From assembly GCA_050012755.1 (NCBI GenBank), contig JBEKGO010000017.1, positions 1 to 50,094 on the forward strand: a DNA stretch of 50,094 bases, written 5' to 3'. The DNA comes from Candidatus Bathyarchaeia archaeon. GTDB lineage: Archaea; Thermoproteota; Bathyarchaeia; Bathyarchaeales; Bathycorpusculaceae. The notes under the pieces were generated by a model, which made no database searches, was not told the DNA's origin, and was given only the letters and a program-made list of their open reading frames with translations. How positions within the stretch are numbered: position 1 is the stretch's first letter; each line of letters begins with the position of its first letter. Below are positions 24,571 through 48,880 of the stretch, piece by piece. Made by a program: the position numbers and the translations under genes.

Positions 24571-24724
24571 TTAGAGAACGCAGGGAAACGGGAATAAACG
24601 CAGACAAACGCGATTAAACGGGAAAACACTCAAAACAACGCAGATCAACGGGAAAAAACGCAACCTGCAAACGGATCACATTGTAAATCAAAAAAGCAAA
24701 CTGGAACACAAACAACAAAATTTA
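24571..24724 (+). repeat. Decamer-array + core element, copy 1 (motif AACG)
   Basis: 9 decamers ending AACG (one variant), 24571-24660; core GCAACCTGCAAACGG...AAAATTTA 24660-24724. Confidence 0.9.
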
Positions 24725-24805
24725 CCCCTGCTTCCCCCACCAGGAACTCAGCCTACACATTAATAAAATGCGCAATTAATAATTCAATTTAGAAGGTCTC
24801 TAGTT

Positions 24806-26857
24806 TTGCAGCCAAGTCATGAAAATAAGCCTAATCGACTCATTAAAGAAAAAAGCCCTTATCTTCTCCAGCATGCCTACAACCCAGTAGACTGGTACCC
24901 TTGGAGCCGAGAAGCCCTAGAGAAAGCGAAAGCTGAAGATAAACCAATTTTTCTCAGCATCGGCTACTCCAGTTGCCACTGGTGCCACGTTATGGAGGAG
25001 GAATGCTTCAACGACCAACAAGTTGCAGACCTCTTAAACAAGGTTTTTGTCTGCATTAAAGTTGATCGCGAAGAAAGACCCGACTTGGACGCGGCTTACA
25101 TGGCTGTTTGTCAAGCTATGGGCAGAAACTGCGGTTGGCCACTTAACATAATGCTTACGTCTAAGCTTAACCCGTTTTACGCTGCCAGCTACATACCAAA
25201 ATTCAGCAGAGCAGGCTTAGTGGGCATGTTGGATCTTGTTCCTCAAATTATGAAAATTTGGAAGGGACAACGCCCTCAGCTTGAAGTTGTGGGAGCTGAC
25301 ATCAAGAGCCGAATCGAATACTTGGAAAAGAGAACTCCTCAACAATCTTTAGGCAAAGAAGTGCTAAGAGACACTTTTGAGCGCTTAACATTAGATTTTG
25401 ATAAGGAAAACGGTGGCTTTGGCACTTCTCCAAAATTTCCAACTCCCCATAGGCTGATGTTTCTAATGCATTACTACGCGAGAACGCAAGAAACGAAGGC
25501 ATTAGCTATGGCTGAGCAGACGCTAAGGCAGATGAGGCTAGGCGGAATCTTTGATCAGATCGGTCTTGGATTTCATCGTTACAGCACAGATCCGCGATGG
25601 CTGGTGCCCCACTTCGAAAAAATGCTTTACGACCAAGCTCTGCTCACATTAGCTTATGTTGAAGCGTACCAGGTAACAAAGGCTGGAAAATTTAGGATAA
25701 CCGCAAAGGAAACGATGGATTACTGCATGAGAGATTTATCTTCGTCAGAAGGCGGCTTTTTCTCAGCTCAAGATGCCGATTCAGAGGGTGAAGAGGGCAA
25801 ATATTATCTGTGGACCATGCAGGAAGTCATGGATTCATTAAAACCGGCAGATGCAGACTTGGCTGTTCACCTATTTGGGTTAAAGGCTGACGGCAACTTT
25901 CCAAATAGCAGAGGACAAAATATTCTTCACCTCGCCGAACCCCTTGACGAACTCGCAGCATACAAAGGCTTAACACTGGATGAACTCATAATGAGGCTGG
26001 GCAAAATTCAACATATATTTCTTGAAGTAAGAAAAAAACGGGTGCCCCCGGCGATAGATGACAAAGTTTTAACTGACTGGAACGGCTTGATCATAGCAGC
26101 TTTGGCCAAAGCCGGCGGTATTTTTAATGAATCAAAGTACCTTGATGCTGCAAAGAAAACAGCAGACTTCATCCTAAACCGTCTGTTCAAAGAGGGCACG
26201 CTGTTTCATCGGTATGCAAAAGGCGAAGCAGCAATAGATGGCTTTCTAGACGACTACGCGTTCTTCACATGGGGGCTAATTGAGCTCTATGAAGCAACGT
26301 TCGAAGACAAATATCTCGAAGCAGCCACAGCACTAACAAAGAGTATGGTAGCGAAGTTTTGGGATGACAAAAACGGCGGATTTTACCACACACAAACCAG
26401 TGAGGCGGGACTGCCAAAACTCAAGCAGCTGTATGACGGAGCAGCTCCCTCAGGCAACTCTGTGGCACTTTACAATCTGTTGCGGCTAAGCCGCTTAACC
26501 AACGAACTTACCTACGAAACAATGGCAACCCAAATAACAAAAACATTCGCGCAGGAAGTAGAAGGAGCGCCTGAAGCATACACATTCTTTCTTTTGGCTT
26601 ATGATTTTTTGATCGGCCCATCTTACAGCGTTACTTTAGTTGGCGAACAAACGCACAAAGACATCGCGGAAATGCTTGATGAATTAAAGAAGCGTTATCT
26701 TCCTACAACCACTGTGTCAATTAAGAGTCCAGAAAAATCTGCTTTCGATTATCAGCAAATCGAGGGCAAAGCAACGGCATACGTCTGTCGAGACCAAATG
26801 TGCCTTCCACCCACCAATAACGTCACCCAAATGCTTGAACAGCTAGGTGTGAAATGA
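24806..26857 (+). CDS. Thioredoxin-domain protein YyaL/SSP411 (DUF255 + six-hairpin fold)
   Basis: [46 protein letters not shown]. Confidence 0.93.
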
Positions 26858-26964
26858 GATACCTTTTCCAAACACTAATCGTTAAGTTAAAGACTAAACC
26901 CTCATAGACTCCTAAGTTAATAAGAAGAGATTTGGGCAAATGCTTAAATTCTGATTTCATATTA

Positions 26965-26991
26965 GTGTGAAATGTGTGAAAAGTGTGATTT
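26965..26991 (+). promoter_or_regulatory. Three 9-bp direct repeats, probable autoregulatory operator
   Basis: GTGTGAAAT-GTGTGAAAA-GTGTGATTT between TATA-like CTTAAAT (26943) and ATG 26995. Confidence 0.6.
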
Positions 26992-26994
26992 GAA

Positions 26995-27228
26995 ATGGAA
27001 AGAAAACGTAACGTACAACTCTATGGAACTGTAAAAGTCGGCGACAGAGGACAAGTAGTCATACCAGCTGATGCCCGCAAAGAACTCGACATTAAACCAG
27101 GCGACCTCCTCCTCGTTATGTCAGGCAGAAACCGACGAGGCGTCACTATGGTCAAAGCTGACGCGATGAGAGAACTTGCAGAAAAAATAATGCAAGGCTT
27201 AGAATCTCCAGAAGAAAAAAACGAATAA
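26995..27228 (+). CDS. AbrB/MazE/SpoVT family regulator
   Basis: GTVKVGDRGQVVIPADARKELDIKPGD. Confidence 0.9.
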   Translation: MERKRNVQLYGTVKVGDRGQVVIPADARKELDIKPGDLLLVMSGRNRRGVTMVKADAMRELAEKIMQGLESPEEKNE

Positions 27229-27241
27229 CTAGGAAAAACAA

Positions 27242-27751
27242 ATGTTTAGAAACCCAGAAGAAATACGGCGACGAATAAGCGAGATAGTGGAAAAGTTCCG
27301 TCAAAAAGGAGCTACAAGCCCCGAGAAAGCAATGACACTTCAGGAACTGGATCTGCCGCCCCGTTTCGAACAAGCCATGCATCGTAGGCTCGGTCAAACA
27401 GGAATTTTTCTTGAAGTAAGCGGCAAATACTACCTAAACGAAGAACGGCTTAAACAGATTCAAGAGCAACGTGCAAATTCATCGTCTGGCAGCTATGGCG
27501 GCGGGATGAGGCAGCGTCCTCCGACTTGGCTACGTTACGCCGGAATCTTACTTATGTTACCAATCGGCATAATCGTTGCTGTTGTTCTGTACTTCTTTTT
27601 TGTCACCACGGGATCAGGATATTATCCAGGAGAATTCCTAATCATACTTTTGGTTGTTATGTTAATTGTGTTTGCGGCTCGAATGATGCTCTGGAGGTCA
27701 CGAAGGCGATACTGGGGTCAACAAAGAACAGGCAACGGACCTTACGCATGA
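27242..27751 (+). CDS. Hypothetical membrane protein (2 C-terminal TM)
   Basis: Soluble N-terminal domain followed by two hydrophobic segments. Confidence 0.75.
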   Translation: MFRNPEEIRRRISEIVEKFRQKGATSPEKAMTLQELDLPPRFEQAMHRRLGQTGIFLEVSGKYYLNEERLKQIQEQRANSSSGSYGGGMRQRPPTWLRYAGILLMLPIGIIVAVVLYFFFVTTGSGYYPGEFLIILLVVMLIVFAARMMLWRSRRRYWGQQRTGNGPYA

Positions 27752-27805
27752 CTGCCCTTATGTCCTTTCTATTTTTGCTCAAATAAGATAAAAAACTGAA
27801 AAAAA

Positions 27806-29212
27806 CTAAATTTTATCCAGATTAAATTCTTGGTGAATCGCTTTCACTACTGCTGCTCCATCCTTTTCCTTGACAACGAATGAAATGTTTAGCTCTGAGC
27901 TACCTTGTGCAATCATGCGTATGTTTATCCCTTTCTTCGCGACGGTTGAGAATATTTTTGATGCGACACCTAACATGCCTTTCATGTTTGCTCCCATAAC
28001 AGCAATTACTGCAACATCGTCCTCGGCTGAGACTTCGCTCACTAACCCCCCTCTGTCCAACAATGCGATTTCAAGGCTGCTGATTGCCCTGCCAAGGAGA
28101 CCTCGTTTGATAATCATTGAAATATTGGCTTCTGAAACAGCGGTGGAAATCATCATTACGTTTACGTCGTTTTTGCCTAAAACATCGAACACTTTTGTGT
28201 AGCTGCCTGGTGCACCTACCATTCCTGCACCGTTAACGTTCACCATGGCTACGTCTTTTATCAAAGCTACGGCTTTGACTACTTCTGTTGCTTTGGGATC
28301 TGGTTCTTTTGTTATGAGTGTGCCTGGGTTTTCAGGGTGGAAAACACTGCGTATTCTTACTGGGATATTTTCTTTCATTACTGGTTCCAATGCGCGTGGA
28401 TGCATGGCTTTTGCGCCGAAAATTGCCATTTCAGCGGCTTCTTGGTAGCTAAGCTGAGGTAGCATTTTAGCAGTTGGCACAATTTTGGGGTCAGTGGTCA
28501 TTATGCCGTCAACATCGGTCCATATCCAGACTTCGTCAGCCTCTAATGCTGCGCCTAGAATTGTGGCTGTATAATCTGAGCCGCCTCGGCCAACAGTCGT
28601 AACAATGCCATCCTGATTTGCGGCGATAAATCCTGTTACGACGGGGATTACGCTTTTTTCAAGCAGCGGTACGAGACGTTCTCGGATGAGATGAGTGGTA
28701 TAGTTCATCAGTGGATCGGCTTCGCCAAAGTTGGAGTCGGTAACAATGCCTGCTTCTTTGCCAGTGAACCATTGAGTTTCAAGTCCTTTGTCTTTTATTG
28801 CACCCCAAACTATAGGCGCAGATAATCGTTCACCAAAAGAAACCACATAATCTTTAGATTTGGGCGTCACTTCGCCAACATAGCAGATGCCTGTTAAAAC
28901 CTTCTCTAGCTCAGCTAAGGTTTTCTCAGTGGTCTGAGTAACTTCCGTTTGAACCTCTTTGCTGCTAATTGCGGATGAAACCACCTCCAAATGTTTCTTC
29001 AACAGCTGTTTGATGAAGTCTTCGATGTGTTTTTCATCGCTTTTTTTAGCTTGCTCGGCTACTTCAATTAGGCTGTTAGTTACACCTGCTAATGCTGAGA
29101 CAACCACCGCCACTTTGTCTTTTTTCGCGTTTTTAGCTACTAAGTCAACTACATGGCGTATGTTTTCGCCCGTGGCAACGCTTGTGCCGCCAAACTTCAT
29201 TACGATTTTCAT
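27806..29212 (-). CDS. lysC: Aspartate kinase
   Basis: KFGGTSV, GRGGSDYTA, TDVDG, C-terminal ACT domains. Confidence 0.95.
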   Translation of the reverse strand: MKIVMKFGGTSVATGENIRHVVDLVAKNAKKDKVAVVVSALAGVTNSLIEVAEQAKKSDEKHIEDFIKQLLKKHLEVVSSAISSKEVQTEVTQTTEKTLAELEKVLTGICYVGEVTPKSKDYVVSFGERLSAPIVWGAIKDKGLETQWFTGKEAGIVTDSNFGEADPLMNYTTHLIRERLVPLLEKSVIPVVTGFIAANQDGIVTTVGRGGSDYTATILGAALEADEVWIWTDVDGIMTTDPKIVPTAKMLPQLSYQEAAEMAIFGAKAMHPRALEPVMKENIPVRIRSVFHPENPGTLITKEPDPKATEVVKAVALIKDVAMVNVNGAGMVGAPGSYTKVFDVLGKNDVNVMMISTAVSEANISMIIKRGLLGRAISSLEIALLDRGGLVSEVSAEDDVAVIAVMGANMKGMLGVASKIFSTVAKKGINIRMIAQGSSELNISFVVKEKDGAAVVKAIHQEFNLDKI

Positions 29213-29214
29213 TT

Positions 29215-30258
29215 TTAGGACTCCGGGTAATTATTTAGCATTCGATTTGCTAACTTATGTCTTATGTCTAGGAGGTCTCTTAAAACTGCGCTTGCTGTTT
29301 CTATTCCGCCTGCGCCTCTGCCGATGAGAGTTTGTTCTGCGGCGTATTCGGTAGAGTAGGTTATTGCGTTTAGTACTCCGCTGACGCATAATGGGCTGTT
29401 TTTCGGTATTTCCGTTGGTTTGACTGACGTTTTGTCGCCGTCTATTGAGCCGATGAGCTTGATCGTATTGCCTCTCTTTGAAGCTTCATCAAGCGCTTGC
29501 AAAGACACATCGCGAATGCCTGTTCTTTCCACGTCTTTTAGCGTTATTTTCTTATTCATTATCCAGTTCGCTAGAATAACCACTTTGCACGCGGTATCAA
29601 ATCCGTCAATATCCATGGAAGGTTCTGTTTCGGCGTAGCCAAGCTTCTGCGCATTTTTGAGGGCTTCTTGGAAGGTTACGCGGTTTTGCGACATTTCTGT
29701 CAGTATGTAATTTGTCGTGCCGTTTAGTATGCCTCGTATGGAAAGGATTTTGTCTCCTGCTAGGCATCGTTTGGCAAACTCAAGCATGGGTGTTCCACCG
29801 CCTACCGTGCCGCTGAACCGCAGGTAAACATTGTTGTATTCTGCTAGTTCGGTGAGGGCTGGCATTGCCAGTGCTAATGGTCCTTTGTTGGTTGTAACGA
29901 CATGTTTTCCTGTTTTAAACGCAGTGGTGATATGTGATAGGGCTGGTTCTCCGTTTTTAATGTTGACAGGTGTGACCTCTACAACTACTTCTGCTTCAAC
30001 CGATGCGATAACGTCTAATGCAGGCATTCCTGGGTGTCCAAAGTCGGGGTCTGCAGATATTGGGTAACCCCGTTGCTTAATTGCTTCCAGCTTTTCAGGG
30101 CTTAAGCCTCTTGGGTTTAAAACCGCACCATCAATATCGGCAATTGCAACTATTTTTGGGTTAAACCCGTAATCCTTGACCTTTTCAGTATATCGCTGAG
30201 CCAGAATGGTAGTTACACCTTTCCCAACTACCCCATACCCAACTAAGATAATCCTCAT
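29215..30258 (-). CDS. hom: Homoserine dehydrogenase
   Basis: GYGVVG, VVTTNKGP, GILNGTTNYIL, GRGAG. Confidence 0.95.
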   Translation of the reverse strand: MRIILVGYGVVGKGVTTILAQRYTEKVKDYGFNPKIVAIADIDGAVLNPRGLSPEKLEAIKQRGYPISADPDFGHPGMPALDVIASVEAEVVVEVTPVNIKNGEPALSHITTAFKTGKHVVTTNKGPLALAMPALTELAEYNNVYLRFSGTVGGGTPMLEFAKRCLAGDKILSIRGILNGTTNYILTEMSQNRVTFQEALKNAQKLGYAETEPSMDIDGFDTACKVVILANWIMNKKITLKDVERTGIRDVSLQALDEASKRGNTIKLIGSIDGDKTSVKPTEIPKNSPLCVSGVLNAITYSTEYAAEQTLIGRGAGGIETASAVLRDLLDIRHKLANRMLNNYPES

Positions 30259-30264
30259 TCATAT

Positions 30265-31515
30265 TCACCTAGCTAAAATGACCCTTCGCGTTTGTAAGCC
30301 CAAAGCTTCTTCGATAGCAGATATTTCAGCATCAACCTCAATAGGTCTTTCGCTCTGCTTAATAGCAGTATCAGGATCTTTAAGCCCATGTCCCGTCGTT
30401 ATGCAGACAACTCGTTCGTCCTTATTGATAACTCCATTCCGAACAAGTTTCCTTAATCCTGCAATAGATGAGGCGCTCGCTGGCTCCACGAAAATTCCTT
30501 CAATCCGTGCAAGCATTTTCTGAGCATCTAAGATTTCCTCGTCGGTTACGGTTTCAGCTGTTCCATGCGATTCATGGATAGCGTTCATTGCTTTCTTCCA
30601 GCTTACTGGGGCACCGATTCGGATGGCTGTAGCTATGGTTTCTGGTTTTTCAACTGGAATTATTTTGGCGCTGCCCGTTTTGATCGCATGCGCTATGGGG
30701 GCTGAACCAACAGCTTGTATACCAGTCATTTTTGGAAGTGTTTTTATGAAGCCAAGTTGATGAAATTCCGTTAATCCTTTCCAGACGGCACTTATATTTC
30801 CTGCATTGCCAACAGGTATAATGATTCTGTCGGGTGCTTTGTTGTTTAGTTGCTCGCAGATTTCGTAACCCAATGATTTCTGTCCTTCGATACGGAAGGG
30901 GTTAATTGAGTTAAGTAGGTAAATGCTCTTGTGCTTCTCTGCAAGTTTAAGCACGAATTCTAAGGCTTGGTCAAAGTTGCCCCTGACCTGCAAAACTTTG
31001 GCTCCGTGAATCATGGCTTGAGCCAGTTTTCCATATGCAATTTTGCCAGAGGGAATTAAAACTGTGCATTTTATTCCAGCTCTTGCAGCGTAAGCGGCTA
31101 AACTTGCAGAGGTGTTGCCTGTTGAGGCACAAATGACGCGTCTTGCGCCAAGTTCAACGGCTTTTGTCACGCCGACAGTCATGCCTCGGTCTTTGAAGCT
31201 GCCAGTTGGATTTTCGCCCTCGTTTTTAACGTATACTTCTTTGAGACCTACTTCTTCGGCCAAACGTGGGGAACGATGCAGTCCTGTTCCGCCTTCGTTT
31301 AGGGTGACTATGTGGGCGGCTTCGTGGATAGGCATGAAGTCCCGGTATCTCCAAACGGATAGGGGCTTTGTTTTCCAGTCACTTTCTTTAAGCGTTTGGG
31401 CTAGCTCTTTGAAATCGAATTTTATTTCAAGGATGTCTCCGCATTTCCTGCAGAAATACAGAATTTCATCTACGTCATATTGTGTTTTGCAGTTTATGCA
31501 TTCTTGATGTGGCAT
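30265..31515 (-). CDS. thrC: Threonine synthase
   Basis: NPTGSFKDRG, ASTGNTSAS, PVGNAGN, TGHGLKD. Confidence 0.95.
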   Translation of the reverse strand: MPHQECINCKTQYDVDEILYFCRKCGDILEIKFDFKELAQTLKESDWKTKPLSVWRYRDFMPIHEAAHIVTLNEGGTGLHRSPRLAEEVGLKEVYVKNEGENPTGSFKDRGMTVGVTKAVELGARRVICASTGNTSASLAAYAARAGIKCTVLIPSGKIAYGKLAQAMIHGAKVLQVRGNFDQALEFVLKLAEKHKSIYLLNSINPFRIEGQKSLGYEICEQLNNKAPDRIIIPVGNAGNISAVWKGLTEFHQLGFIKTLPKMTGIQAVGSAPIAHAIKTGSAKIIPVEKPETIATAIRIGAPVSWKKAMNAIHESHGTAETVTDEEILDAQKMLARIEGIFVEPASASSIAGLRKLVRNGVINKDERVVCITTGHGLKDPDTAIKQSERPIEVDAEISAIEEALGLQTRRVILAR

Positions 31516-31609
31516 ATTGAATCTCCGTTAAATTGTCTTTTGTGATTGGAGAGTTGTAGCTGAACTATCAGTCTAACATTATTAATTTTGTTGTTAGCCA
31601 TCGTGTTTC

Positions 31610-32188
31610 TTAACCCACCATGTTGGTTAAAGTTTCGTAGGTTTTGAGGCTGTCTTTTTTCTCAACAACAATAATTGTTTCAGTCCAACAGGAAATGAAC
31701 TCGACTATGTTCACGTTTTGCTCTGCCAACAAAGTGGCTAAGAATGCAACTACTCCAGGTGTTGCCTCCAACTCCTCAGGTGAATGAACAACAATCATGG
31801 TGCAGTTGTCATGCTTAACAAGGACGTTTATGCGTTCGGGCAACTCGCTTCTGTCAAGCAAATAAACAAATTTACCGACTAAATCAACTTTCATGCCTGT
31901 TTTTGTGCTAATCTCTTTGGCTGTTATCATTACTGATTTTCGGTCGTAAACAGCTATGCTGCTATGCTTTAGCAGATGCAGGACTTTTTCTTCTCTTTTC
32001 TGCTTGTGCTTTTGCAATTCCTCTGAATAGCGGCGCAAGGCAGCTTTTATCGCGGATGTGTCATTAGTTTTTATTTCCTTCTGTATTTGCCGCGACAGTT
32101 CGCTTAGGTTTACTATGCCTTTTTCGAGGGCTTCCAGTAGGTATGGTTTGTTTCGCAAGTGGTTTCGAACGTTTTGAGCAATAGTCAT
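31610..32188 (-). CDS. ACT-domain putative amino-acid-responsive regulator
   Basis: N-terminal HTH-like GIVNLSELSR...AIKAALRRY; C-terminal ACT (PGVVAFL...NIVEFISCWTE); start ATG 32188 or TTG 32200. Confidence 0.75.
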   Translation of the reverse strand: MTIAQNVRNHLRNKPYLLEALEKGIVNLSELSRQIQKEIKTNDTSAIKAALRRYSEELQKHKQKREEKVLHLLKHSSIAVYDRKSVMITAKEISTKTGMKVDLVGKFVYLLDRSELPERINVLVKHDNCTMIVVHSPEELEATPGVVAFLATLLAEQNVNIVEFISCWTETIIVVEKKDSLKTYETLTNMVG

Positions 32189-32312
32189 ATTGGGACTCAA
32201 TGTATCAAATGGTACATTTAAATTTTATTAAGTAACAGAAAAGTCAAAACCTTTAAAAATACAGCGTTCAAGGTAACGGGAACAATTTAACCTGAAAAAT
32301 GAGGGAGCAACA

Positions 32313-33551: not shown

Positions 33552-33563
33552 GTAGGCAAGAAG

Positions 33564-35084: not shown

Positions 35085-35088
35085 GGCT

Positions 35089-39200: not shown

Positions 39201-39509
39201 ATAAATTCCACCATGCTCTTCAAAGCTAGAGAGGCTCAAGCTAACCCAAACATTTTGGATTACTTGCAAGAGCGTAAGATAGATTTAGTTATTAACGTGC
39301 CTATTGCTAATCGGCAGAATAGTTTCTCAGACATCTTGACTGACGGCTACATAATTCGACGTCAAGCAGTCGAATTCAACGTGCCAGTCATTACGAATCT
39401 ACAGTTGGCCGCTGCTTTGGTGGATGTGTTGAAGCAGAAGGGCAAAAACGGAACCTCAATCCGATCCCTTAACGAGTACATGGATGAGCTACCCTGGAAA
39501 CTCTGGTAA
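36234..39509 (+). CDS. carB: Carbamoyl-phosphate synthase large subunit
   Basis: EFDYSG, two ATP-grasp halves (GVHTGDS, GVHSGDA), C-terminal MGS domain. Confidence 0.97.
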   Translation: MPKFDWIKKVMVLGSGAIKIGEAAEFDYSGSQCLKALKEEGIETILINPNIATIQTDPRLSGKVYLLPVTPEYVERVIEKERPDGILLGFGGQTALNCGLELEKKGILQKYNCKVLGTPVKAIEDTGDRERFRQAMLKAGVPPLQSKSATSVNHALEVAEEIGYPVIVRVAYTLGGKGAGVAHNVAELKEIATRGIAQSRIGQVLIEEYVGHWKEVEYEVMRDYSDNCLTVCNMENFDPMGVHTGDSIVVAPSQTLSNREYHLIRSTSINAIRSLGIVGECNIQWALNPKSEEYRVIEVNSRMSRSSALASKVTGYPLAYIATKLTLGYTLPELINKVTEVTTACFEPALDYITVKIPRWDLQKFKNADRHIGPQMRSVGEVMAIGRCFEEALQKAVRMLDTGKIGLVGNPEDSEPESEERLRDAMANPTDERLYKIVKALKKGIPISEIYRLSGVDPFFLHKIQNIIDMEAELHALNLAEGSATEIIREAKRLGFSDEQIALCQGTDESTIRAFRKGANIIPAVKQIDTLAAEWPAKTNYLYLTYGGDEDDIELNTTESKVIVLGAGVFRIGSSVEFDWCGVNTIWALKKNGIKEAIMVNYNPETVSTDYDVSDKLYFEELTTERILDIYEKENPLGVITSVGGQIPNNLAMKLANSGVKLLGTSAKNVDLAEDRSKFSALLDQLGISQPAWSKLLSIADAKRFADKIGYPVIVRPSYVLSGSAMRVAYNETSLENFLNLAAKVSRDHPVVISKFINRAKEVEVDGVSDGETVFIGAIMEHVENAGVHSGDATMTIPPQALKLEVQKKIEDCTQRIVKALTIHGPFNIQYLVKDDVVNVIECNLRASRSMPFVSKTRGINLIELATLAMLGKKIDGVQLSPMTVAPHVGVKVPQFSFMRLSGADPVLGVEMLSTGEVACLGENFSDAFSKALQSAEFNIPPKDGAVFISVGGNEERKRRVVPIAQAFVEMGVKIYATAHTAKVLNDAGINSTMLFKAREAQANPNILDYLQERKIDLVINVPIANRQNSFSDILTDGYIIRRQAVEFNVPVITNLQLAAALVDVLKQKGKNGTSIRSLNEYMDELPWKLW

Positions 39510-39560
39510 CACCGTAAATGTTCCAACTGCATACCCTGCGAAATCGTTGACGATGACTTT

Positions 39561-39702
39561 TCTAGTCAAAAAGGGTCAAATGTAGTCAATTCTGGTCAAA
39601 TCTAGTCAAAAAGAGTCAAAACTAGTCAAATCTAGTCGCAACCTGCAAACGCTGCAAACCCTGAAGCAACGAAGCAAACTGAAACACAAACAACAAAATT
39701 TA
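39561..39702 (+). repeat. Decamer-array + core element, copy 2 (motif GTCAAA)
   Basis: 8 decamers NNNRGTCAAA 39561-39637; core 39638-39702. Confidence 0.92.
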
Positions 39703-39788
39703 CCTCCCCTGCCTAGGCGCGGCAGACTTATAGCAATTCTTTTTTGATATTGACAAATTATTAAAGTAACATCAATTGTAACCTGCAG

Positions 39789-41600: not shown

Positions 41601-41698
41601 CAAAAAAATCGAAGAATGCGCTTAGGGGCTTGATTATGGAAAACCTTTATTACCTAAAAAAGTCATCAGGGATTCACTCCAACTAGAAGTGAACTTAC

Positions 41699-42601
41699 TT
41701 GAAAAAGATAGTAGCCTTCGTAATTATTGCAGCTTTGGTTTTAGCTGCTTTTACTGTGCTTGCAGGAAATGTGAAAGCGGAATCTTCTGAAACTATCGTT
41801 TTAACTTACAGTCGGTATATTGCTCCTTCAACCTCAACTCTTGCATCTGCGCCTGGCGATTTAATTGTGGTCGGTGAGTTACAGAATATCGGCCCAAACA
41901 TCATTGAAAATATGACTGTTCAAGGAACCGCGATAGGCGCCAATGGACAGACTTTGGCTGTCACCACTTCGATAGCTTTTGTGTATTATATGGCTCCTGG
42001 TCAGAGAGCTCCTTTCTATCTTGATTTTACAGCTCAAAGCAGTCAAACTCAAGACCTAACTTGGATTCCCTCAGTAAGTCAAGTGGTGTTTACATTTCCT
42101 TCTGTTGTGCATGCTAATACGAGACAGTATTCAGATGCAAAAGTGGTTCATGAAATAAATTACACTGATAATTCAGGTCTTTATGTTATTCGTGGAATAG
42201 TTGAGAATGATGGTGGCCTTGTAGATCAGAACCCTTGGGTTGTTACAACTTTTTATAATGCTTCTGGATCGGTTATAGGTTTGAACTACACGAATTTCTT
42301 AACCGACACGCTTTCGCCTAACGGCGGAGTTCCGTTTTATGCGACACCTGTCGACAACGATACGCAATTAACAAGTCAAATAGTAAGTTATGCTTTTCAA
42401 GTTGACTCATTAACCCTTACCAACTCCTCAACATCCTCGCCAACGTCTACACCTACCTCCTCCGGCTCAGCTTCACCAGCCGGGCAAATCCCAATTCTGC
42501 CAATAGTAATCGTTGTAGTGCTCGTTGCAGTTGCTCTTGTCGCTTTGATGCTGTTTAGAAGCCGCAGAAAACCGTTGCCGCCTCCTCCTCCAACAGAATA
42601 A
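41699..42601 (+). CDS. Secreted membrane-anchored protein with two Ig-like (FxLYD-like) domains
   Basis: Signal peptide; VGELQN / GIVEN...TFYNASG; Ser/Thr linker, TM, poly-Pro tail. Confidence 0.7.
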   Translation: MKKIVAFVIIAALVLAAFTVLAGNVKAESSETIVLTYSRYIAPSTSTLASAPGDLIVVGELQNIGPNIIENMTVQGTAIGANGQTLAVTTSIAFVYYMAPGQRAPFYLDFTAQSSQTQDLTWIPSVSQVVFTFPSVVHANTRQYSDAKVVHEINYTDNSGLYVIRGIVENDGGLVDQNPWVVTTFYNASGSVIGLNYTNFLTDTLSPNGGVPFYATPVDNDTQLTSQIVSYAFQVDSLTLTNSSTSSPTSTPTSSGSASPAGQIPILPIVIVVVLVAVALVALMLFRSRRKPLPPPPPTE

Positions 42602-42640
42602 CTTTGTTTCAAGAAACTGCTGACTTATTTTCTCAGTTCT

Positions 42641-42792
42641 TTTCCATACTTTTCTATACTTTTTTGTACGTTCCTATCCTTTTCCATACGTTCCCATACG
42701 TTTCTGTAGGTTTTCATACGTTTTAGTACGCAACCTGCAACCAATTCAAACCTCAAATCAAAAAAGCAAGCCAAAACACAAGAATAAAATTT
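42641..42792 (+). repeat. Decamer-array + core element, copy 3 (motif TACGTT)
   Basis: 9 decamers TTYYNRTACK 42641-42730; core 42730-42792. Confidence 0.9.
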
Positions 42793-42800
42793 GGGGATGG

Positions 42801-42938
42801 TTTGCTTAGGTTTGCGTAGGTTTGCTTGCTTTTGCTTCTGTTTGCATGTTTTTGCTTTTATTTGCTTCCTTGTACGCAGCCTGCAAACGATTTAAGGTTA
42901 GATTCAAAAAAGCAATCCAAAATATAAAGAAAAAATTT
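42801..42938 (+). repeat. Decamer-array + core element, copy 4 (motif TTTGC)
   Basis: 7 decamers starting TTTGC plus TGTAC junction; core GCAGCCTGCAAACG 42876-42938. Confidence 0.88.
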
Positions 42939-43145
42939 GCGTGAAAATCCGCCAATAATTAACTACTACAAGTTTATTAGATAAATTTTAGAAAAGTCAA
43001 AATGAATCTAAAAAAGTTCTTACTGAAAATCTATGGGAGAGCTTTGCCTAAACTAAGCAGAATATGAACAAAAGCGAAGCCTCTCAAGTAGCCTAATTGC
43101 TACAAGATGAAAATGTAGTCGCTTGATATATCTAGCAAAGAGCCT

Positions 43146-43355
43146 TCAAATTCTTGAAAAGTATTCCAGTGGCGCATACCAGTAAATCATTATCGCTTTC
43201 TTGCAACCGGGCTTCTCGCATTTATGAATCTTCCTAACAATTCTACCGTAATAACTCTCAGGCATAGGCTTCACCAATGAAAAAGCGTTATGCAGTTTAT
43301 CCGGCGGATCAACTTCCAAAATTTCAAAACAGAAAGGGCATTCTATAGTCGCCAC
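43146..43355 (-). CDS. Small Zn-ribbon-like protein
   Basis: CPFC...CEKPGC; GTG start with GAGGG SD. Confidence 0.65.
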   Translation of the reverse strand: MATIECPFCFEILEVDPPDKLHNAFSLVKPMPESYYGRIVRKIHKCEKPGCKKAIMIYWYAPLEYFSRI

Positions 43356-43457
43356 AATACACCCTCACAAACACTTATGTATGTCTATGCTAAAAGATTT
43401 TTCGCATCAAAACAAAAAGAACCAAAAAATTCTGTTAGAGCTGAAACACCTGCAAAT

Positions 43458-43733
43458 TCATTTTTGAAAGCTTTTTAAGACTTTTCTTTTATCCAAATAG
43501 CTTATCAGAATCACTCCTAAAAAAACAAGTAAAATTGCAGCCAAAATAGTTGAGAAAATGGCGAGATAAACATCGATATAAATTTTAAAAAATATGTACC
43601 TGTAAAAATTACTCACTGAACCAAAAATAAAAAATGACTCCAAAGCCAAAAGCCCAACTACCGCTAAGCGATCTTTAGTTTTCTGGTTAAGCGGCTTAAT
43701 CTTCCTTCTCTCCTCGAAGACTTTACTTGGCAG
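43458..43733 (-). CDS. Small membrane protein (possible CTG start)
   Basis: Frame open upstream of track start (43649) to CTG 43733; basic N-terminus + 2 TM. Confidence 0.5.
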   Translation of the reverse strand: MPSKVFEERRKIKPLNQKTKDRLAVVGLLALESFFIFGSVSNFYRYIFFKIYIDVYLAIFSTILAAILLVFLGVILISYLDKRKVLKSFQK

Positions 43734-43888
43734 ACGACATAAATAAAGTTACAAAATTAAAAAAGTTAACTAAAAAGAACTGACCCTAAGCAACATCTAC
43801 CAATCAAACATTTTTTTGCCATGATCTCATCCAAGAAATGTCTAAAAGGCGACAAACTGCGCTTAGAAAAAGGTCAAAATCAAAAGAT

Positions 43889-44023
43889 TTACAGACGCCC
43901 ACCGAGAACGCCCGCAACTATTGAAATTATAAAAAGCACAATAATACCAACAACTATGATTTTTTTAATTGAAGACTTCATTTGCTCTATTTCCGTGATC
44001 CTTTGCTGTGATATACTCGGCAT
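43889..44023 (-). CDS. 44-aa single-TM peptide
   Basis: MPSISQQRITEIEQMKSSIKKIIVVGIIVLFIISIVAGVLGGRL; below track cut-off. Confidence 0.5.
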   Translation of the reverse strand: MPSISQQRITEIEQMKSSIKKIIVVGIIVLFIISIVAGVLGGRL

Positions 44024-44111
44024 TTGAATTTAGGCTTTGTGAATTCAGAATTAAGCTAGATTTTGGGTTTTTTAGCAAGTCTCAAATTTGCAGGGTGATT
44101 TCATTTATTTT

Positions 44112-44660
44112 TCAACCTTCAAAGCCCAAATGTTTCCTAAATATTTCTTCTCGCCATTTCCCTTCCCAACTTGCCCAACCAGTCTTCACAAGACTCTCCC
44201 GCAAATGAGGACTCTCAGCAACCCAATCAAGAAAACTCCAAAACCGGCTCTTATCCTCAAGCATTTCCCGCGGCACACCTTTTTCAACACACCACCTAAC
44301 ATAGGCATCATCCACCAATTGCCTAAGCATACCAGTAGATGGGACTTTTTTGACTTTGAACCCCAGCTTCTGCAGATGCTCAATTACGGTGGACAGAACG
44401 TATTCTGAGCAAACATCAAAGCAGGTTTCACTATCAGGCTGCATCACCGCCACAATTTCATCTGCAATCTTTACAGCATCATCCAAGTATTTCTTGTTGC
44501 GAAAGTTTGGCGGCTGAAATGAAGAGGTGGAAATTCTGCGTTCCAAAAGCATCGGCGCTGGTGGCTTAAGCGCGCCCACAACAACACCCAATAAGAGGTC
44601 ACTCCATCCTGACGCATCAATCAAAATCATTTTGCCTGGAAGAAAACAATCCAACGCCAT
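44112..44660 (-). CDS. Hypothetical protein, possible RNase H-like fold
   Basis: ILIDASGWSDLLLGVVVG resembles the RNase HII N-terminal strand motif; alternative ATG at 44630. Confidence 0.55.
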   Translation of the reverse strand: MALDCFLPGKMILIDASGWSDLLLGVVVGALKPPAPMLLERRISTSSFQPPNFRNKKYLDDAVKIADEIVAVMQPDSETCFDVCSEYVLSTVIEHLQKLGFKVKKVPSTGMLRQLVDDAYVRWCVEKGVPREMLEDKSRFWSFLDWVAESPHLRESLVKTGWASWEGKWREEIFRKHLGFEG

Positions 44661-44720
44661 ATCTATTCCGCCAGCAACTCAACGACCTTTTACAATACTT
44701 TCTAGGCCTCAGATATAAGT

Positions 44721-44850
44721 TAATTTTTGTTGTTTGTGTTTCAGTTTGCTTCCTTGATTTAGGATTTGACGCGTTTGCGGGTTGCGTCTCTATGCGTATC
44801 TGTGCGTCTCCACGCGTCTCTACCCGTCTCGTAGCGTCTCCTTGCGCCCA
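44721..44850 (-). repeat. Decamer-array + core element, copy 5 (motif GAGACG)
   Basis: Core reverse complement 44721-44785; 6-7 decamers with CGTCTC on + strand. Confidence 0.9.
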
Positions 44851-44867
44851 GAAAGTCGTGAAAGTGC

Positions 44868-45009
44868 AATTTTTTTCTTTGTGTTCCGGGTTGCTTTTTT
44901 GAAGCCGAATCTGATTCCTTTGCAGGCTGCGTCACCATACGTCACTAAACGTCATAGAAGTCATTAAACGTTAATACACGTCACCAAACGTCACTATAAG
45001 TCACCACTC
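44868..45009 (-). repeat. Decamer-array + core element, copy 6 (motif TGAC)
   Basis: Core reverse complement 44868-44930; 8 GTCA-starting units (one 9-mer). Confidence 0.9.
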
Positions 45010-45057
45010 ATCAAAAGCTAAATTATCAAAAAAGTTGACATAATTAAAAGGCCAATG

Positions 45058-45516
45058 TCATTTAGGGTCGTCCAGCAATTTAGCCCGCAACAGACGCCTC
45101 TCAGTCAATAAACCAACCATACTCTCGCCCTTAAGAACCACCAATCTTCTAACATGATTATGCAGCATAATTTCAAGCGCATCCTCAACAGATCTGTCAA
45201 ACGAAATTGTAATCAGCGGCGCAGTCATTATTTCCTGAGCAACAATCTCTCGCGCATCCTTCCCAGCATAAATCACCTTTCGCACAAGGTCTCTCTCTGT
45301 CACAATACCTAAAGGTTCAGTATCTCGCATAACGATAACAGCGCCAATGTTACTGTTTACCATAAGTGAGGCGATTTCAGAGACGGTTTCTGAACGATTA
45401 ACAGTTGGAACAGGCATCCTGGCTATTGAACCAACAGTTACCCTTGATAAAGTAGAAGGTTTTCCATATGTGCTTTCGCCGATTTTCACAATCTTAACCT
45501 CAAATAAGATTTTCAC
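45058..45516 (-). CDS. CBS-domain pair protein
   Basis: GIVTERDL and GLLTERRL motifs; start uncertain. Confidence 0.85.
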   Translation of the reverse strand: MKILFEVKIVKIGESTYGKPSTLSRVTVGSIARMPVPTVNRSETVSEIASLMVNSNIGAVIVMRDTEPLGIVTERDLVRKVIYAGKDAREIVAQEIMTAPLITISFDRSVEDALEIMLHNHVRRLVVLKGESMVGLLTERRLLRAKLLDDPK

Positions 45517-45783
45517 TGTTTGACTTAATTAACTTACGATTGCACACTAACTAACTGATGCGGGCAACACGCATATGGCAAATTAGTTAAATATTTGATT
45601 CTTCTCTGTATTTTTGGGAGTAGTAAACAGCTTTCGCGGCGAGCTTAAGGGCAAACAACACAGTTGGGTTCAGCATGTTAATATGCTTGTTAAATGCCCC
45701 AACAATGACCGTCAGTAAACCCTTCAATGGCTTGCATGCCAAAGTTTGCGAACCTCTCAAAGTGAAAAGGAGAAAAACAAAAA

Positions 45784-48375
45784 ATGAAAATCTTAACCAA
45801 AAAAACAGCCGTAATTTTATTGGCTACAATTCTAATGATTTCAATGACGACATCACTATTACCCAAAACACTAGGCCAACTCACTAATCCAGCAGGAACT
45901 GTGCAGACATCATATCCTTATGTTAGAGTCGGTCCTAACCCCATAGGCGTCGGCCAAACTGCAACCATTATTATGTTTGTTGCTCAACCCACCTTAACCA
46001 GTGAACCCGTGACTGGCTGGACTGTCGTAGTAACTGATCCCAACGGAGTTAAAACAACACTTGGACCATTCGTATCAGACGCAACAGGAGGCACAGACAC
46101 GCTGTTCACTCCATCAATTGTTGGCAACTACACATTCCAAGGTTTCGTAGCTAGACAAGTGTTGTCCGATGGCACTATCTGGGCAGCCGGTACATCTAAC
46201 GTGGACACGCTTGTAGTACAATCAGCGCCTGTATCGCTTAGTAATTATCCGATAACTCCGCTTCCGACTTCATGGTGGCAAACTCCAGTTACCGCTGAAA
46301 ACGTACAAAACTGGTATGCAATCTCTGGACCTTGGCTTGGATATGGTATTAACGCTTTTGCTATCACTGGAGGATACAACAATACACAAAACCAGTATAA
46401 TCCCTACACTCTACCAGTAATGTCTGGTCACATCCTCTGGACGAAGCCTTGGGCTACCGGCGGTGTAGTTGGAGGAAACGCAGGCGGAAATGAGGTAAGC
46501 AGCCACTTCTGGTCAACCGACCAATACTGGCCTAAATATGCACCAGTTGTAATGAACGGAATAATGTACTCCACCCAATTTGACACAGACACATCAAACA
46601 ATCACGGCACAATTGCAACAGACTTATACACTGGAAAAACACTCTGGACACTCAACAGCACTAGTGGCAACTTAGTTTGTGGCATGGAAACTTTCTATAA
46701 GAATGCTAACCAATACGGCACAGTCGGTCCATACATCGTTACCATGGGAGTCCTCCCAGGACTTACGTCTCCGAGCGGGACAGCATACAACCTTTGGGAT
46801 GCAATGAACGGACAATATGCAGACAGCATCATAAACGCGCCCGCAATGGGTTCATTTGGTCCGTTCGGAGGACCAGAATGGGGCGCAGATGACAACGGAA
46901 ACTTAATCGCGTACTACGTTGACAGCACTAATGCGTCTCAACCGATGCTTCAATTGTTTAACATGACAGTTGCTCTTGGTGAGGCCTTTAATTTCGGGTG
47001 GAATCCACCGCAAGGCGGCATTTTCAATTGGACCGCTGGACTAGAATGGTCTAAACCAATATTCACAAGCGTTAATGGCGGAGCATTAAAGACAGGACTC
47101 GCAGTAAACGGAGTAACAGACAATACAGTAATATTGACTGGCGAATACACTTTCGGACAATTCTACGGCGGATTACAACAAGGCTACAACATTGTAGCAG
47201 GCATGGACGCAACAACAGGAGCTCAATTATGGATTAAGAACTTCACATCAGCCGATACTCCATCGTTAGCACCGTGGACAAGGACACAAATGCAAATTTT
47301 CGACGGACTATGGGTTCAAGTAAACCAAGATAATGATGCTATAATCGCAGTAAATGCAAGAGATGGCAGCATTGCATGGCAATCAACTCTACCTGCTGGC
47401 ATAAACAGTAATGGCTACGACGTGTTCAACCTCAGAACCTACAACGGACTAGGTTGTCTAGTATGCGTAGGCTTCGGAGGAGACATCTGGTGCGTTAACG
47501 AAACAAACGGAAAAACGATATGGCAAACGAATACCATCAGCCTACTAGGCAATCCAGGGCTTGAAACTCCCTACGCTACATGGCCACTATGGACTTTCAT
47601 ATGCGATTGCATAACCAACAACGTAGGATACTTCGCAGTCGGCCACGAATACAACCCACCGCTATTCCACGGAGCACAACTAATAGCGCTCAACATGACA
47701 AATGGACAATTCATATGGAGCGTACTGGACATGTCCATTGAATCCACAGAAATCTCATATGGCATCATGCTATCACGCAATGCTTACGACAACCAAATAT
47801 ACGCTTTCGGCAAAGGGCCAAGCACAATGACTGTTACAGCCCCCAACATCGGAGTTACAACCGCTACCCCAATAACCATAACTGGCACAGTAATGGATAT
47901 CTCTGCAGGCGCATCGCAAGATGCAGTTGCAAAGAACTTCCCCAATGGTATCCCATGCGTTTCTGACGCTAGCCAGAGTCACTGGATGGAATATGTATAC
48001 GAGCAGCAACCGATTCCGGCTAACACTACTGGTGTTCCAATCACTTTAAGCGTCATTGATGCCAACAACAACTTTAGGACAATCGGCACTACCACAAGCG
48101 ATGCCAGCGGCACTTACTCATTTACATGGACACCTGACATACCTGGCGCATACGCAGTCATCGCATCATTTGGAGGCTCCAACTCATACTACGGATCAAC
48201 AGCTGAAACCCACTTCTACGCAAGCTCGCCAGCAGCAACGGCTACACCAGCAGCTACACCAGCAACGGGCCTAGTAAACAACACAACGCTAGAATACGGA
48301 ATCATAGCAATCATAATCGTCATCATCATAATCGGCGCAGTCCTAGCACTGTTGATTATGAGAAAACATCCATAA
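45784..48375 (+). CDS. Secreted, membrane-anchored PQQ-like beta-propeller protein (paralog 3)
   Basis: Close to 13651..16314 (SWWQTPV, GHILWTKPW, GHEYNPPLFHGAQL); AGGAG SD; TM + KHP. Confidence 0.85.
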   Translation: MKILTKKTAVILLATILMISMTTSLLPKTLGQLTNPAGTVQTSYPYVRVGPNPIGVGQTATIIMFVAQPTLTSEPVTGWTVVVTDPNGVKTTLGPFVSDATGGTDTLFTPSIVGNYTFQGFVARQVLSDGTIWAAGTSNVDTLVVQSAPVSLSNYPITPLPTSWWQTPVTAENVQNWYAISGPWLGYGINAFAITGGYNNTQNQYNPYTLPVMSGHILWTKPWATGGVVGGNAGGNEVSSHFWSTDQYWPKYAPVVMNGIMYSTQFDTDTSNNHGTIATDLYTGKTLWTLNSTSGNLVCGMETFYKNANQYGTVGPYIVTMGVLPGLTSPSGTAYNLWDAMNGQYADSIINAPAMGSFGPFGGPEWGADDNGNLIAYYVDSTNASQPMLQLFNMTVALGEAFNFGWNPPQGGIFNWTAGLEWSKPIFTSVNGGALKTGLAVNGVTDNTVILTGEYTFGQFYGGLQQGYNIVAGMDATTGAQLWIKNFTSADTPSLAPWTRTQMQIFDGLWVQVNQDNDAIIAVNARDGSIAWQSTLPAGINSNGYDVFNLRTYNGLGCLVCVGFGGDIWCVNETNGKTIWQTNTISLLGNPGLETPYATWPLWTFICDCITNNVGYFAVGHEYNPPLFHGAQLIALNMTNGQFIWSVLDMSIESTEISYGIMLSRNAYDNQIYAFGKGPSTMTVTAPNIGVTTATPITITGTVMDISAGASQDAVAKNFPNGIPCVSDASQSHWMEYVYEQQPIPANTTGVPITLSVIDANNNFRTIGTTTSDASGTYSFTWTPDIPGAYAVIASFGGSNSYYGSTAETHFYASSPAATATPAATPATGLVNNTTLEYGIIAIIIVIIIIGAVLALLIMRKHP

Positions 48376-48413
48376 AGTGGAAGCAAACACAAAAAACCAC
48401 TTTCCCTTTTTTT
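48374..48413 (+). terminator. Hairpin + oligo-T terminator
   Basis: AAAGTGG...CCACTTT followed by CCC-T7 immediately after stop. Confidence 0.55.
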
Positions 48414-48555
48414 GTTTTGTAAAATAGCCAAACTGTAGAATTTATTTCGTCCCGAAAAGACCTTAAAAGTTGACTATTGAGGAACTTGAAATTTCTTCAG
48501 TTGTTACTTCAGAAATTAAAACACCGCAATCAAGTTGTTGATGTGTTTTGTAGCA

Positions 48556-48668
48556 TGTTCTGTTCTTTGTGTTTTGAGTTGCTTTTTCAATTTGGGGTTT
48601 GATTTGTTTGCAGGTTGAGTCTGGAAAAGTCCAAAAAAGTCTAAATAAGTCCAAAAATGTTCATGACA
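48556..48668 (-). repeat. Decamer-array + core element, copy 7 (motif GACTT)
   Basis: Core reverse complement 48556-48618; 5 units GTCY...AA. Confidence 0.85.
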
Positions 48669-48715
48669 GAAAAATGAAATAAAGTGAAGGCTAGCTGGGG
48701 TTCCATATTTTTGAC

Positions 48716-48880
48716 TAAATTTTGTTCTTTGTGTTTGGGGTTGGTTTTTTGGTTTAGGGTTTGTGGTGTTTACAGATTGAATCACTAGAAGTCATAGGAA
48801 GTCACCAAAAGTCATAGAAAGTCACTAAAAGTCCCTACAAGTCATAAAACGTCACACAACGTCACTATCCGTCAAAATCT
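48716..48880 (-). repeat. Decamer-array + core element, copy 8 (motif TGAC)
   Basis: Core reverse complement 48716-48780; 10 decamers starting mostly GTCA. Confidence 0.9.

Follow-up and report, generated by a model that had tools for sequence, protein, structure and literature searches.

We focus here on a family of repeated DNA elements in the genome of an archaeon of the class Bathyarchaeia, eight copies of which lie in one stretch of 50,094 nucleotides (the window: positions 1 to 50,094 of contig JBEKGO010000017.1, Candidatus Bathyarchaeia archaeon, assembly GCA_050012755.1; in our numbering contig C17 of genome G000, which comprises 2.41 Mb in 65 contigs). Each element joins an array of direct 10-bp units to a conserved core, and the first of the eight stands back to back with a gene for a 92-amino-acid (92-aa) protein. 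On balance, we consider it probable that these are phased operator arrays of the type used by MraZ, with one 92-aa protein for each short box of the array, and that gene-less copies of array and core have been amplified in this species. As far as our search of the open-access literature reaches, the family is undescribed; among the papers listed there, nothing was relevant on intergenic or tandem repeats of Bathyarchaeia or on AbrB.

A preliminary description of this stretch had listed eight loci, and reading the sequence places all eight where it put them. A search profile built from the eight cores and refined in one iteration recovers exactly these eight in the window and 130 copies on 34 of the 65 contigs of G000; the count of eight is thus right for the window and far too low for the genome. 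The plan of the element is constant: five to ten direct 10-bp units in fixed register and orientation, followed by an A/C-rich core of 64-68 nt. As had been claimed, the array lies on the same side of the core in all eight window copies, with 9, 8, 9, 8, 8, 6, 10 and 5 units counted in elements 1 to 8 when the core sets the register. The core proved to be as nearly ungapped as described, with an ungapped alignment of 68 columns, 82% mean column identity and 21 invariant columns. The features in the window are the following.

24260..24535, minus strand: gene of the 92-aa protein, divergent from element 1 and proposed to encode the binder of its AACG-box array (translation)
24570..24659, plus strand: array of element 1, nine decamers, box AAC then G (sequence, Tandem Repeats Finder)
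24660..24723, plus strand: core of element 1 (profile search)
39558..39637, plus strand: array of element 2, eight decamers, box GTC then AA, starting 49 nt past the carB stop
39638..39701, plus strand: core of element 2 (profile search)
42640..42729, plus strand: array of element 3, nine decamers, box TAC
42730..42793, plus strand: core of element 3 (profile search, alignment)
42796..42875, plus strand: array of element 4, eight decamers, box TGC (TTTGC type)
42876..42939, plus strand: core of element 4, then a weak tail (CCGCCAATAA)
44931..45010, minus strand: array of element 5, eight units (one of them 9 nt long), box GAC (GTGACG/T type)
44867..44930, minus strand: core of element 5 (profile search, alignment)
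44786..44845, minus strand: array of element 6, six decamers, box GAC (GAGACGC type)
44722..44785, minus strand: core of element 6, with the TATA (ACTTATATC) of a 182-aa gene directly after it
48781..48880, minus strand: array of element 7, ten decamers, box GAC (GTGACT type)
48717..48780, minus strand: core of element 7, the most diverged of the eight
48619..48668, minus strand: array of element 8, five decamers, box GAC (GGACTTTT type)
48555..48618, minus strand: core of element 8 (profile search, alignment)

Tandem Repeats Finder places a period-10 array beside each of the eight window cores, and the same periodicity is found across the genome. In the 80 nt 5' of the core, lag-10 identity averages 0.586 over 128 copies compared with 0.274 over 3,905 control intergenic 80-mers, which bears out the 10-bp autocorrelation for which a check had been proposed. 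It reaches at least 0.5 in 83.6% of the copies and in 0.1% of the controls; most copies genome-wide thus do carry the array, contrary to a possibility raised in the preliminary description. Identity peaks at a lag of 10 or 20 nt in all but five of the copies (123 of 128). Within-array conservation, taken over 102 arrays, is 0.93-0.97 at unit positions 8-10 and 0.59-0.75 elsewhere, and with these positions kept while the rest drift, the unit is to be read as a short box plus a drifting spacer, the conserved box being the 3-5 nt at the 3' end of each unit. The core is common to all loci, and the decamer varies by locus, as the preliminary description had implied, with about 12-15 box types. The box trinucleotide is GAC in 51 of the 128 arrays, TAC in 19, ACC in 11, TGC in 10, CAC in 9, GTC in 8, GAT in 6, AAC in 5 and another in 9; the decamer types of window elements 1 to 8 are AACGC, GTCAA, ..TAC, TTTGC, GTGACG, GAGACGC, GTGACT and GGACTTT. 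An array type may stand either way round with respect to the core, GTCAA being the inverse of TTGAC.

The 130 copies are grouped into 76 loci, 41 of them single, 23 double, 7 triple, 3 quadruple and 2 quintuple, and stacked copies lie 145-190 bp apart in one common direction. Among copies of one subfamily the order of slightly differing units is the same, so whole elements have been copied, not expanded in place. Mosaics also occur in which an identical core, linker and second element stand behind differing first arrays, and these argue for recombination at the shared core. One composite recurs in G000, consisting of a core variant that ends in CCCAATGTACAGAGGACAAAGTCT, a 45-nt linker and a CACACA-type element, behind first arrays of various types (C5:31493-31742, C27:9663-9992, C33:25088-25418, C60:10234-10455, C46:1-222, C55:81-228 and C61:81-228), a pattern that suggests shuffling by recombination at the core. 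TTTGC-type arrays (window 42796-42875; G000 C1:30549-30628 and C4:11155-11234; also on C60, C61, C33 and C40) are the reverse complement of GCAAA-containing core blocks, with 13-nt matches at 85-92%, and in all cases read they stand second in a stack, behind a core ending in AAAAATGGGG. One contig of run X5 has a deletion in the element 7 array, at window position 48798: 30 nt, exactly three decamers, are missing, and several array positions differ; this deletion implies that unit number varies between strains by whole units. Otherwise the contigs of the four DNA runs compared showed only breaks related to the repeats. At locus L235 (G055:C6:214460-215075), beside a gene copy, about 16 perfect 6-nt units (GAACGG) precede the usual decamers, in what looks like a slipped, off-period expansion of the box. 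A coding function of the arrays was considered and rejected: TGAC-type arrays contain a TGA every 10 nt, which closes all three frames, and in TTTGC-type arrays the frames open inconsistently between copies.

The arrays are tied to the 92-aa protein by position, by sequence type and by distribution. In the window, the start codon of the 92-aa gene and the beginning of the element 1 array are 35 nt apart, and a TATA-like motif (TACTTAAGG) lies between the two. G000 holds eight hits of the protein family, four full length (C17, C2, C14 and C53) and four cut by contig ends, and each lies either at an array or at a contig end that adjoins one. Across the genus the gene occurs in 28 of 47 genomes. 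Linkage was scored on 71 full-length gene copies from 22 genomes of the genus, a copy being counted as linked when a core with E<0.01 on the expected strand lies no more than 300 nt from the start codon. By this definition 58 copies are linked, eight have a weaker core match and five have none. Among the 66 copies with a core match of either strength, 62 have 10 as their best lag. The subfamily of the protein tracks the type of the box, and the pairings recur across species, as listed here.

RP(L/I)EGCNK protein motif: TTGAC box (7 loci, 5 genomes)
LQRGNRVQVPKYVRW protein motif: CAGAC box
LQK(Q/K)NR protein motif: GTAC box
LKKRDLLY protein motif: CACA box
RHNRLAVPT protein motif: TATC box
ENRNR protein motif: TACCC box
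xTNT/ANA/KNT protein motif: AACG box (closest group, 74-86% identical)
FNK/SNK/FSK protein motif: AGTCG box (closest group, 74-86% identical)

Proteins of the AACG and AGTCG classes are 77-83% identical to each other. The alignment columns that carry most information on the box are 16, 58 and 18 (mutual information, phylogeny uncorrected), and in the structural model described below they fall in two hairpin loops. Gene and element counts rise together (Spearman rho 0.86 over the 25 genomes scored for both, phylogeny again uncorrected). Six of the seven element-free genomes have no gene and the seventh has one stop-containing fragment, and the nine genomes with at least eight elements have 3-12 genes each. 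Element-poor genomes have gene and module at about 1:1, in synteny downstream of carB. In G012, an element-poor genome with this ratio of about 1:1, three tandem regulator genes lie 1.5 kb apart (L257, L260 and L261; G012:C1:7616-11303), with two-box CAGAC arrays and strongly diverged cores. Few genomes beyond the genus have the gene (12 of 201 genomes of the class, G000 included; 9 of 87 genera), and upstream of the copies found there lie, once more, 3-5 phased boxes together with a partial core (TTAAGC...GAAAAGCAAGC). Past the core, no partner gene is conserved at the 16 gene-linked loci examined.

Sequence comparison places the 92-aa protein in no named family. Pfam and NCBIfam give no family for it at E<=1 save an insignificant match to Arcadin_1, and PF04014 does not match the gene. 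A large protein database holds 125 homologues, none with a Pfam domain and most of them unnamed or 'hypothetical'; a JGI label, 'PrlF-type antitoxin/regulator', stands on 5 of the 120 homologues listed. The AlphaFold (AF2) model, on the other hand, is of high quality (predicted local distance difference test score (pLDDT) 94.3, predicted template-modelling score (pTM) 0.85) and contains a beta-beta-alpha-beta unit twice, which makes the protein a predicted single-chain swapped-hairpin barrel of the AbrB/MraZ/PhS018 fold. Foldseek against the PDB ranks PhS018 of Pyrococcus horikoshii (2glw) first (E 3.6e-5, template-modelling score 0.75, 92/92 columns, 21% identity). This protein, which we take to be a single-chain swapped-hairpin barrel as well, is of the same length and is the best structural match, whereas it differs in belonging to another archaeal phylum and in its low identity; we know of no DNA target or repeat array for it. 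Ranks 2-12 are mostly MraZ (9r4j, 9sz7, 1n0e and 9qlg among them) and include MraZ on a four-box promoter, the identity to MraZ chains being 11-16%. As modelled, the 92-aa protein would work like MraZ while being a sequence member of neither MraZ nor AbrB. With antitoxins and transition-state regulators of the AbrB, MazE and VapB type, which have repeat operators, it shares the fold class, the small size and an operator at the regulator's own promoter; those proteins, however, are half-barrel homodimers, usually accompanied by a toxin gene, whereas here a single chain is predicted and no toxin partner is conserved (16 loci). Its neighbour cluster in the Atlas is an AbrB-family cluster (score 0.86), which we regard as a lead only. 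The window also contains an ordinary small gene with a MazE/AbrB domain (PF04014) at 27028-27117 on the plus strand, which lies outside the 92-aa family and has no element adjoining.

MraZ offers the closest precedent for the geometry. Cryo-electron microscopy structures from Mycoplasma genitalium (9r4j, 9sz7) have four GTG(G/T) boxes separated by six-nt spacers, with the 'cradle-like' motif of one subunit per box in successive major grooves, contacts through Lys13, Arg15 and Arg86, and oligomerisation aiding binding (Nat Commun 2026, PMC12957436). The likeness extends to a single chain of two AbrB-like halves (by the model, for the 92-aa protein) and to short boxes in direct orientation, with a 10-bp period, just upstream of the regulator's own gene. 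Columns 16, 18 and 58, in their hairpin loops, would moreover correspond to the cradle residues Lys13, Arg15 and Arg86. The differences are equally clear: the protein here has 92 aa compared with about 140, and only MraZ has ring-building helices; the arrays here have 5-10 boxes instead of four, and where MraZ has a single conserved box they fall into many specificity classes; the array is fused to a conserved core of 64-68 nt and about 120 gene-less, dispersed copies exist; and the host is an archaeon, with no dcw operon. The earlier proposal of a protein coat along one helical face of the array thus gains strong circumstantial support from the gene beside the array (in element 1 and in 58/71 copies), from the match of subfamily to box and from the MraZ geometry; the binding itself we infer.

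In the mechanism that we propose, members of the 92-aa family would line a single face of the helix in the arrays, each box taking one protein. The ancestral unit would have been a regulator gene pointing away from its boxes and core, and the position of the boxes, over or just upstream of the gene's own promoter, suggests autoregulation. Across the genus the family would have split into at least 12 protein/box specificity classes. In this species, gene-less units of array and core would have been copied to about 120 intergenic sites with no preferred orientation, where the copies would have built up into tandem stacks and recombination at the core that they share would have shuffled them. The orphans would probably be extra binding sites in trans, acting as a regulon or by titration, or else neutral passengers. 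Among the roles put forward in the preliminary description, an enhancer- or operator-like module is the best fit.

A number of points weigh against this proposal. A gene or gene remnant adjoins only 9 of the 130 elements, so most copies cannot be autoregulatory operators. Against the four protein types in the G000 assembly, 40 of the 128 arrays (TGC, CAC, GTC, GAT and others) have no resident cognate gene. Either nothing binds these, or the genes that serve them fell into gaps of the assembly, where paralogues may indeed be missing, given that contig ends truncate four gene copies. Gene and array are physically linked, and shared descent alone would therefore give some correlation between protein and box. 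A profile search against PDB sequences reaches 2glw at E 0.45 only, and the protein falls outside the MraZ family, with no profile match, 92 aa instead of about 140-150 and no oligomerisation helices. Finally, the A/C strand asymmetry of the core is unexplained by a double-stranded DNA site and hints at a role at the RNA level or in termination. A more far-reaching version of the proposal would see here a self-expanding, multi-specificity recognition system, in which the 92-aa protein is a reader whose loops near residues 16, 18 and 58 set a code of 3-5-nt boxes, a dozen or more orthogonal pairs exist, the modules spread as a new archaeal class that is mobile or shuffled by recombination and has no known transposase, and stacked landmarks of up to five arrays wire unrelated genes; we think this unlikely.

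The behaviour of the copies could also be that of a new mobile element, in which gene, array and core are autonomous, the protein binds the subterminal arrays, like a protein that binds transposon ends, and the gene-less copies are mobilised in trans by a catalytic factor, in the manner of miniature inverted-repeat transposable elements. Congeneric species have anything from 0 to 122 copies; the orphans are species-specific insertions (0/18 orthologous sites occupied) with no orientation bias towards their neighbours (41/30, p 0.24); the retained unit order implies copying of whole elements; copies sit at contig ends and in variable regions rich in toxin-antitoxin genes (8/27 PIN hits within 1.5 kb vs 11.5%); and each of several subfamilies has a possible 'master' gene. 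All this would suit such an element. Nevertheless, no terminal inverted repeats are found in the five window regions scanned, target duplications are not definable among relatives that are 70-85% identical, and the 16 gene-linked modules have no conserved neighbour that encodes a transposase, recombinase or reverse transcriptase, no genome-wide transposase survey having been made. The 92-aa barrel has no known catalytic activity, no real copy occurs in viral contigs (0/52, from one pattern), plasmids or phages, and the ratio of about 1:1 between gene and module, syntenic past carB in element-poor genomes, is better suited to a resident regulator, so that we consider a mobile element a minority possibility. 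The suggestion of an element end, made in the preliminary description, thus survives in so far as the orphans are species-specific insertions; the lack of terminal inverted repeats and of any link to a transposase speaks against it. A segregation or recombination site, also proposed there, is not borne out, since no partner nucleoside triphosphatase (NTPase) or recombinase gene is conserved at the 16 loci. Type II plasmid centromeres do consist of phased iterons bound cooperatively by small dimeric proteins, and on C33, C54, C60 and C61 the elements flank cassette-like toxin-antitoxin genes; 76 chromosomal loci instead of one or two, the lack of a conserved partner NTPase or integrase beside the module, the lack of attC-like hairpin symmetry and the housekeeping neighbours in the window nevertheless make centromere-like (ParR/parC) sites or integron attC-type recombination sites very improbable.

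Two further explanations dispense with a duplex operator. Array and core might be transcribed, as genes or leaders of small non-coding RNAs, for example a protein sponge with repeated motifs and a tail that is A/C-rich and unstructured, the protein being RNA-binding or unrelated. Such RNAs would account for a core with almost no G or T on one strand, for dispersed, gene-like loci in random orientation and tandem clusters, and for a TATA-like GATTTAAGC inside the core in 22/54 gene-linked copies and 30/128 copies of G000. There is, on the other hand, no Rfam match, no covariation and no consistent fold; array types are seen either way round beside the core (GTCAA/TTGAC), to which duplex DNA sites are better suited than an RNA motif; and the fold relatives of the protein bind double-stranded DNA. 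We judge the RNA explanation rather unlikely. In the other explanation the DNA is structural or insulating and has no dedicated protein, phased T/A tracts curving the DNA or positioning histones, and the elements acting as bidirectional terminators between genes through T-rich arrays on one strand and the T-rich reverse of the core on the other. T4-T6 runs do lie in helical phase in many units, several T runs, GCTTTTTTG among them, are present in the core when it is read in reverse complement, and at 10/16 gene-linked loci the upstream gene has its 3' end towards the core, with a convergent gene at 30/71 orphan loci. GAGACGC, AACGC and AGGCGC arrays, however, have no T/A tracts, the conserved part of the unit is the 3-5-nt box and not the tract, and neither curvature nor termination explains the tight link to one protein family with box-specific subfamilies; we therefore hold a structural role to be improbable.

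The proposed operator arrays are also set apart from known classes of repeats by their form. The preliminary description had noted the lack of terminal inverted repeats, hairpin symmetry and CRISPR form, and this stands. The inverted-repeat scan of five window regions gave no terminal inverted repeats, only one palindrome outside the elements and, in element 4 alone, complementarity between array and core. A 7-nt TTGACGG/CCGTCAA match between the array start and the tail is present in the GTGACG subfamily only. Hairpins of the attC or repetitive extragenic palindromic (REP) type are not seen, with no inverted repeats inside the window elements and no Watson-Crick covariation in core and tail; nor is there a consistent hairpin or fold around the TGTTGTTCTTCT motif in 18 loci (z -3.8 to +0.8). 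The proposed comparison with Rfam gave no family: there are no matches in the window, and 18 related loci gave three tRNAs only, none of them overlapping an element. A CRISPR array was rejected, in that the would-be spacers are decamer arrays of a few recurring types, 41/76 loci are single and Rfam matches no CRISPR. Staphylococcal STAR elements are reportedly dispersed intergenic repeats with internal tandem modules (PMC3532100), and pneumococcal BOX elements are repeats of the same description. The present elements resemble both in being multi-copy, intergenic, species-variable and modular, with a variable number of short direct repeats; STAR and BOX, in contrast, have no known cognate protein family adjacent to them, no 10-bp box/spacer design and no shared long core, and BOX and REP elements rely on hairpins, of which there are none here.

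The distribution of the elements points to recent amplification. A sequence-only covariance model of the core matches 17 of the 24 other species of the genus, with 0-86 matches per genome (0 to 122 across the genus as a whole), and none of 16 genomes of other genera of the order. In public genome contigs, 36 fetched loci were scored as real copies; among the matches listed, the titles are those of Bathyarchaeota or Bathyarchaeia metagenome-assembled genomes (MAGs) with one exception, an Acidoferrum record (L055) that is possibly misbinned. The DNA runs that contain the stretch are labelled as peat or wetland metagenomes. Among viral contigs, 0/52 pattern matches were real, the search having used one exact gapped pattern that only 29/128 genuine copies match, and collections of plasmids and phages gave no match. 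Metagenome loci located through an 863-aa neighbour yielded three further elements and no empty site.

Within G000, a gene or gene remnant adjoins the 9 of 130 elements mentioned above and the remainder begin at the array; beyond intact and contig-cut genes, remnants stand beside two orphans only (C16 and C32). The orphans, about 120 gene-less copies, are species-specific. No element lies within 420 nt upstream of the 182-aa gene in any of 18 orthologues, even in element-rich species. The comparison of orthologous loci downstream of carB, which had been proposed as a check, found the site empty or differently occupied in other species: it is empty in some and holds a reverse-orientation, gene-linked module in G043, G046, G015 and G019, and in G000 it holds an unrelated GTC-type orphan. 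The beta-CASP/RMMBL gene downstream of element 2 has its own conserved TATA (AAATTATTAAAG) 3' of the core, and keeps it in species without the element. By these comparisons the orphans are recent gains; relatives are 70-85% identical in genes, too diverged for empty sites to be defined to the base. With respect to the downstream gene (called outside the window by a crude open reading frame (ORF) picker), 41 orphans have the same and 30 the opposite orientation (p 0.24), and a convergent gene lies on the core side at 30/71 orphan loci. A general promoter role for the downstream gene was rejected on this ratio of orientations and on the TATA that orthologues keep without the element. The 3-nt box of 88 of the 128 arrays is shared with one of the four resident protein types.

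Element-rich small contigs (C33, with 17 elements in 27.9 kb, and C54, C60, C61, C53 and C43) are rich in VapBC/PIN, MazF-like and other toxin-antitoxin-like pairs. Across G000, 8/27 PIN hits lie within 1.5 kb of an element compared with 11.5% expected (p 0.009), and contig C41 has five PIN genes and no element; the enrichment is modest, and we take it for co-residence in variable regions. Elements stand at the ends of contigs C16, C40, C43, C46, C53, C54, C55, C60 and C61, and fragments of the 92-aa gene at the ends of C53, C54, C56 and C65, and some 92-aa paralogues are probably missing from the MAG despite its 100% marker completeness.

The core is the part of the element common to all loci, and it may be a promoter or a terminator. 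Its motifs are, in order, GCAACCTGCAAAC ... CAAAAAAGCAAC ... AAACACAAAGAACAAAATTT, the best-conserved block being CAAAAAAGCAACC.AAAACA; this block and the TTAAGC upstream are recognisable beside homologous genes in other families of the class. Many copies have a 3' tail, GCACAAAAAACCGTCAATAAC. Strand asymmetry is strong, the core being A/C-rich with G and T nearly absent from one strand, and the T-rich reverse strand has several T runs, GCTTTTTTG among them. A subset of cores contains a TATA-like GATTTAAGC(TTTGC) (22/54 gene-linked and 30/128 G000 copies, by a TTTAA[AG] count), which makes a core promoter plausible, possibly one divergent from the regulator. The upstream gene ends towards the core at 10/16 gene-linked loci, and a T-rich terminator or insulator on the reverse strand is as plausible a role as a promoter. 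Short-form cores diverge after about position 53 and have, 20-30 nt further on, a conserved TGTTGTTCTTCTA(N)CAGAC motif (gene-linked loci L232, L233, L234, L239, L251, L253, L257, L264 and L287; G000 C59:2817, C54:1511 and C53:7095). In other genera of the class (L294, L296, L299, L301 and L303), long G-rich runs (GGGAGGGGG and similar) lie about 35-45 nt past the core-like block, and some species of the window's genus have the C-rich complement at that position.

If the protein does bind as proposed, the family would constitute a natural library of at least 12 pairs, each matching a 92-aa DNA reader to a short phased box. Material of this kind is rare, and the recognition code of the AbrB/MraZ fold could be worked out from it and put to new use. 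For Bathyarchaeia, which are very abundant and uncultured, no concrete regulator-operator system would have preceded it. The repeat family and its proposed binding protein expand together within one genus, from about 1:1 to about 15:1 elements per gene. In practical terms, the elements account for many contig breaks in MAGs of the genus and are a source of spurious calls of ORFs of 70-130 aa.

The window neighbours of the elements are unrelated housekeeping genes, namely carB, a beta-CASP RNase, a DUF255 thioredoxin-like protein, a CBS protein, a PQQ-repeat surface protein and LysW. The last is a 63-aa zinc-ribbon ORF at 48888-49079 on the minus strand (Zn_ribbon_LysW, E 1.3e-9), whose stop lies 8 nt before the array of element 7. 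Between 42940 and 44111, about 1.17 kb contain small ORFs only, including a 69-aa Cys-rich one at 43146-43355 on the minus strand; public contigs that cover this segment have raised depth and internal joints, and it may be a variable or repeated region.

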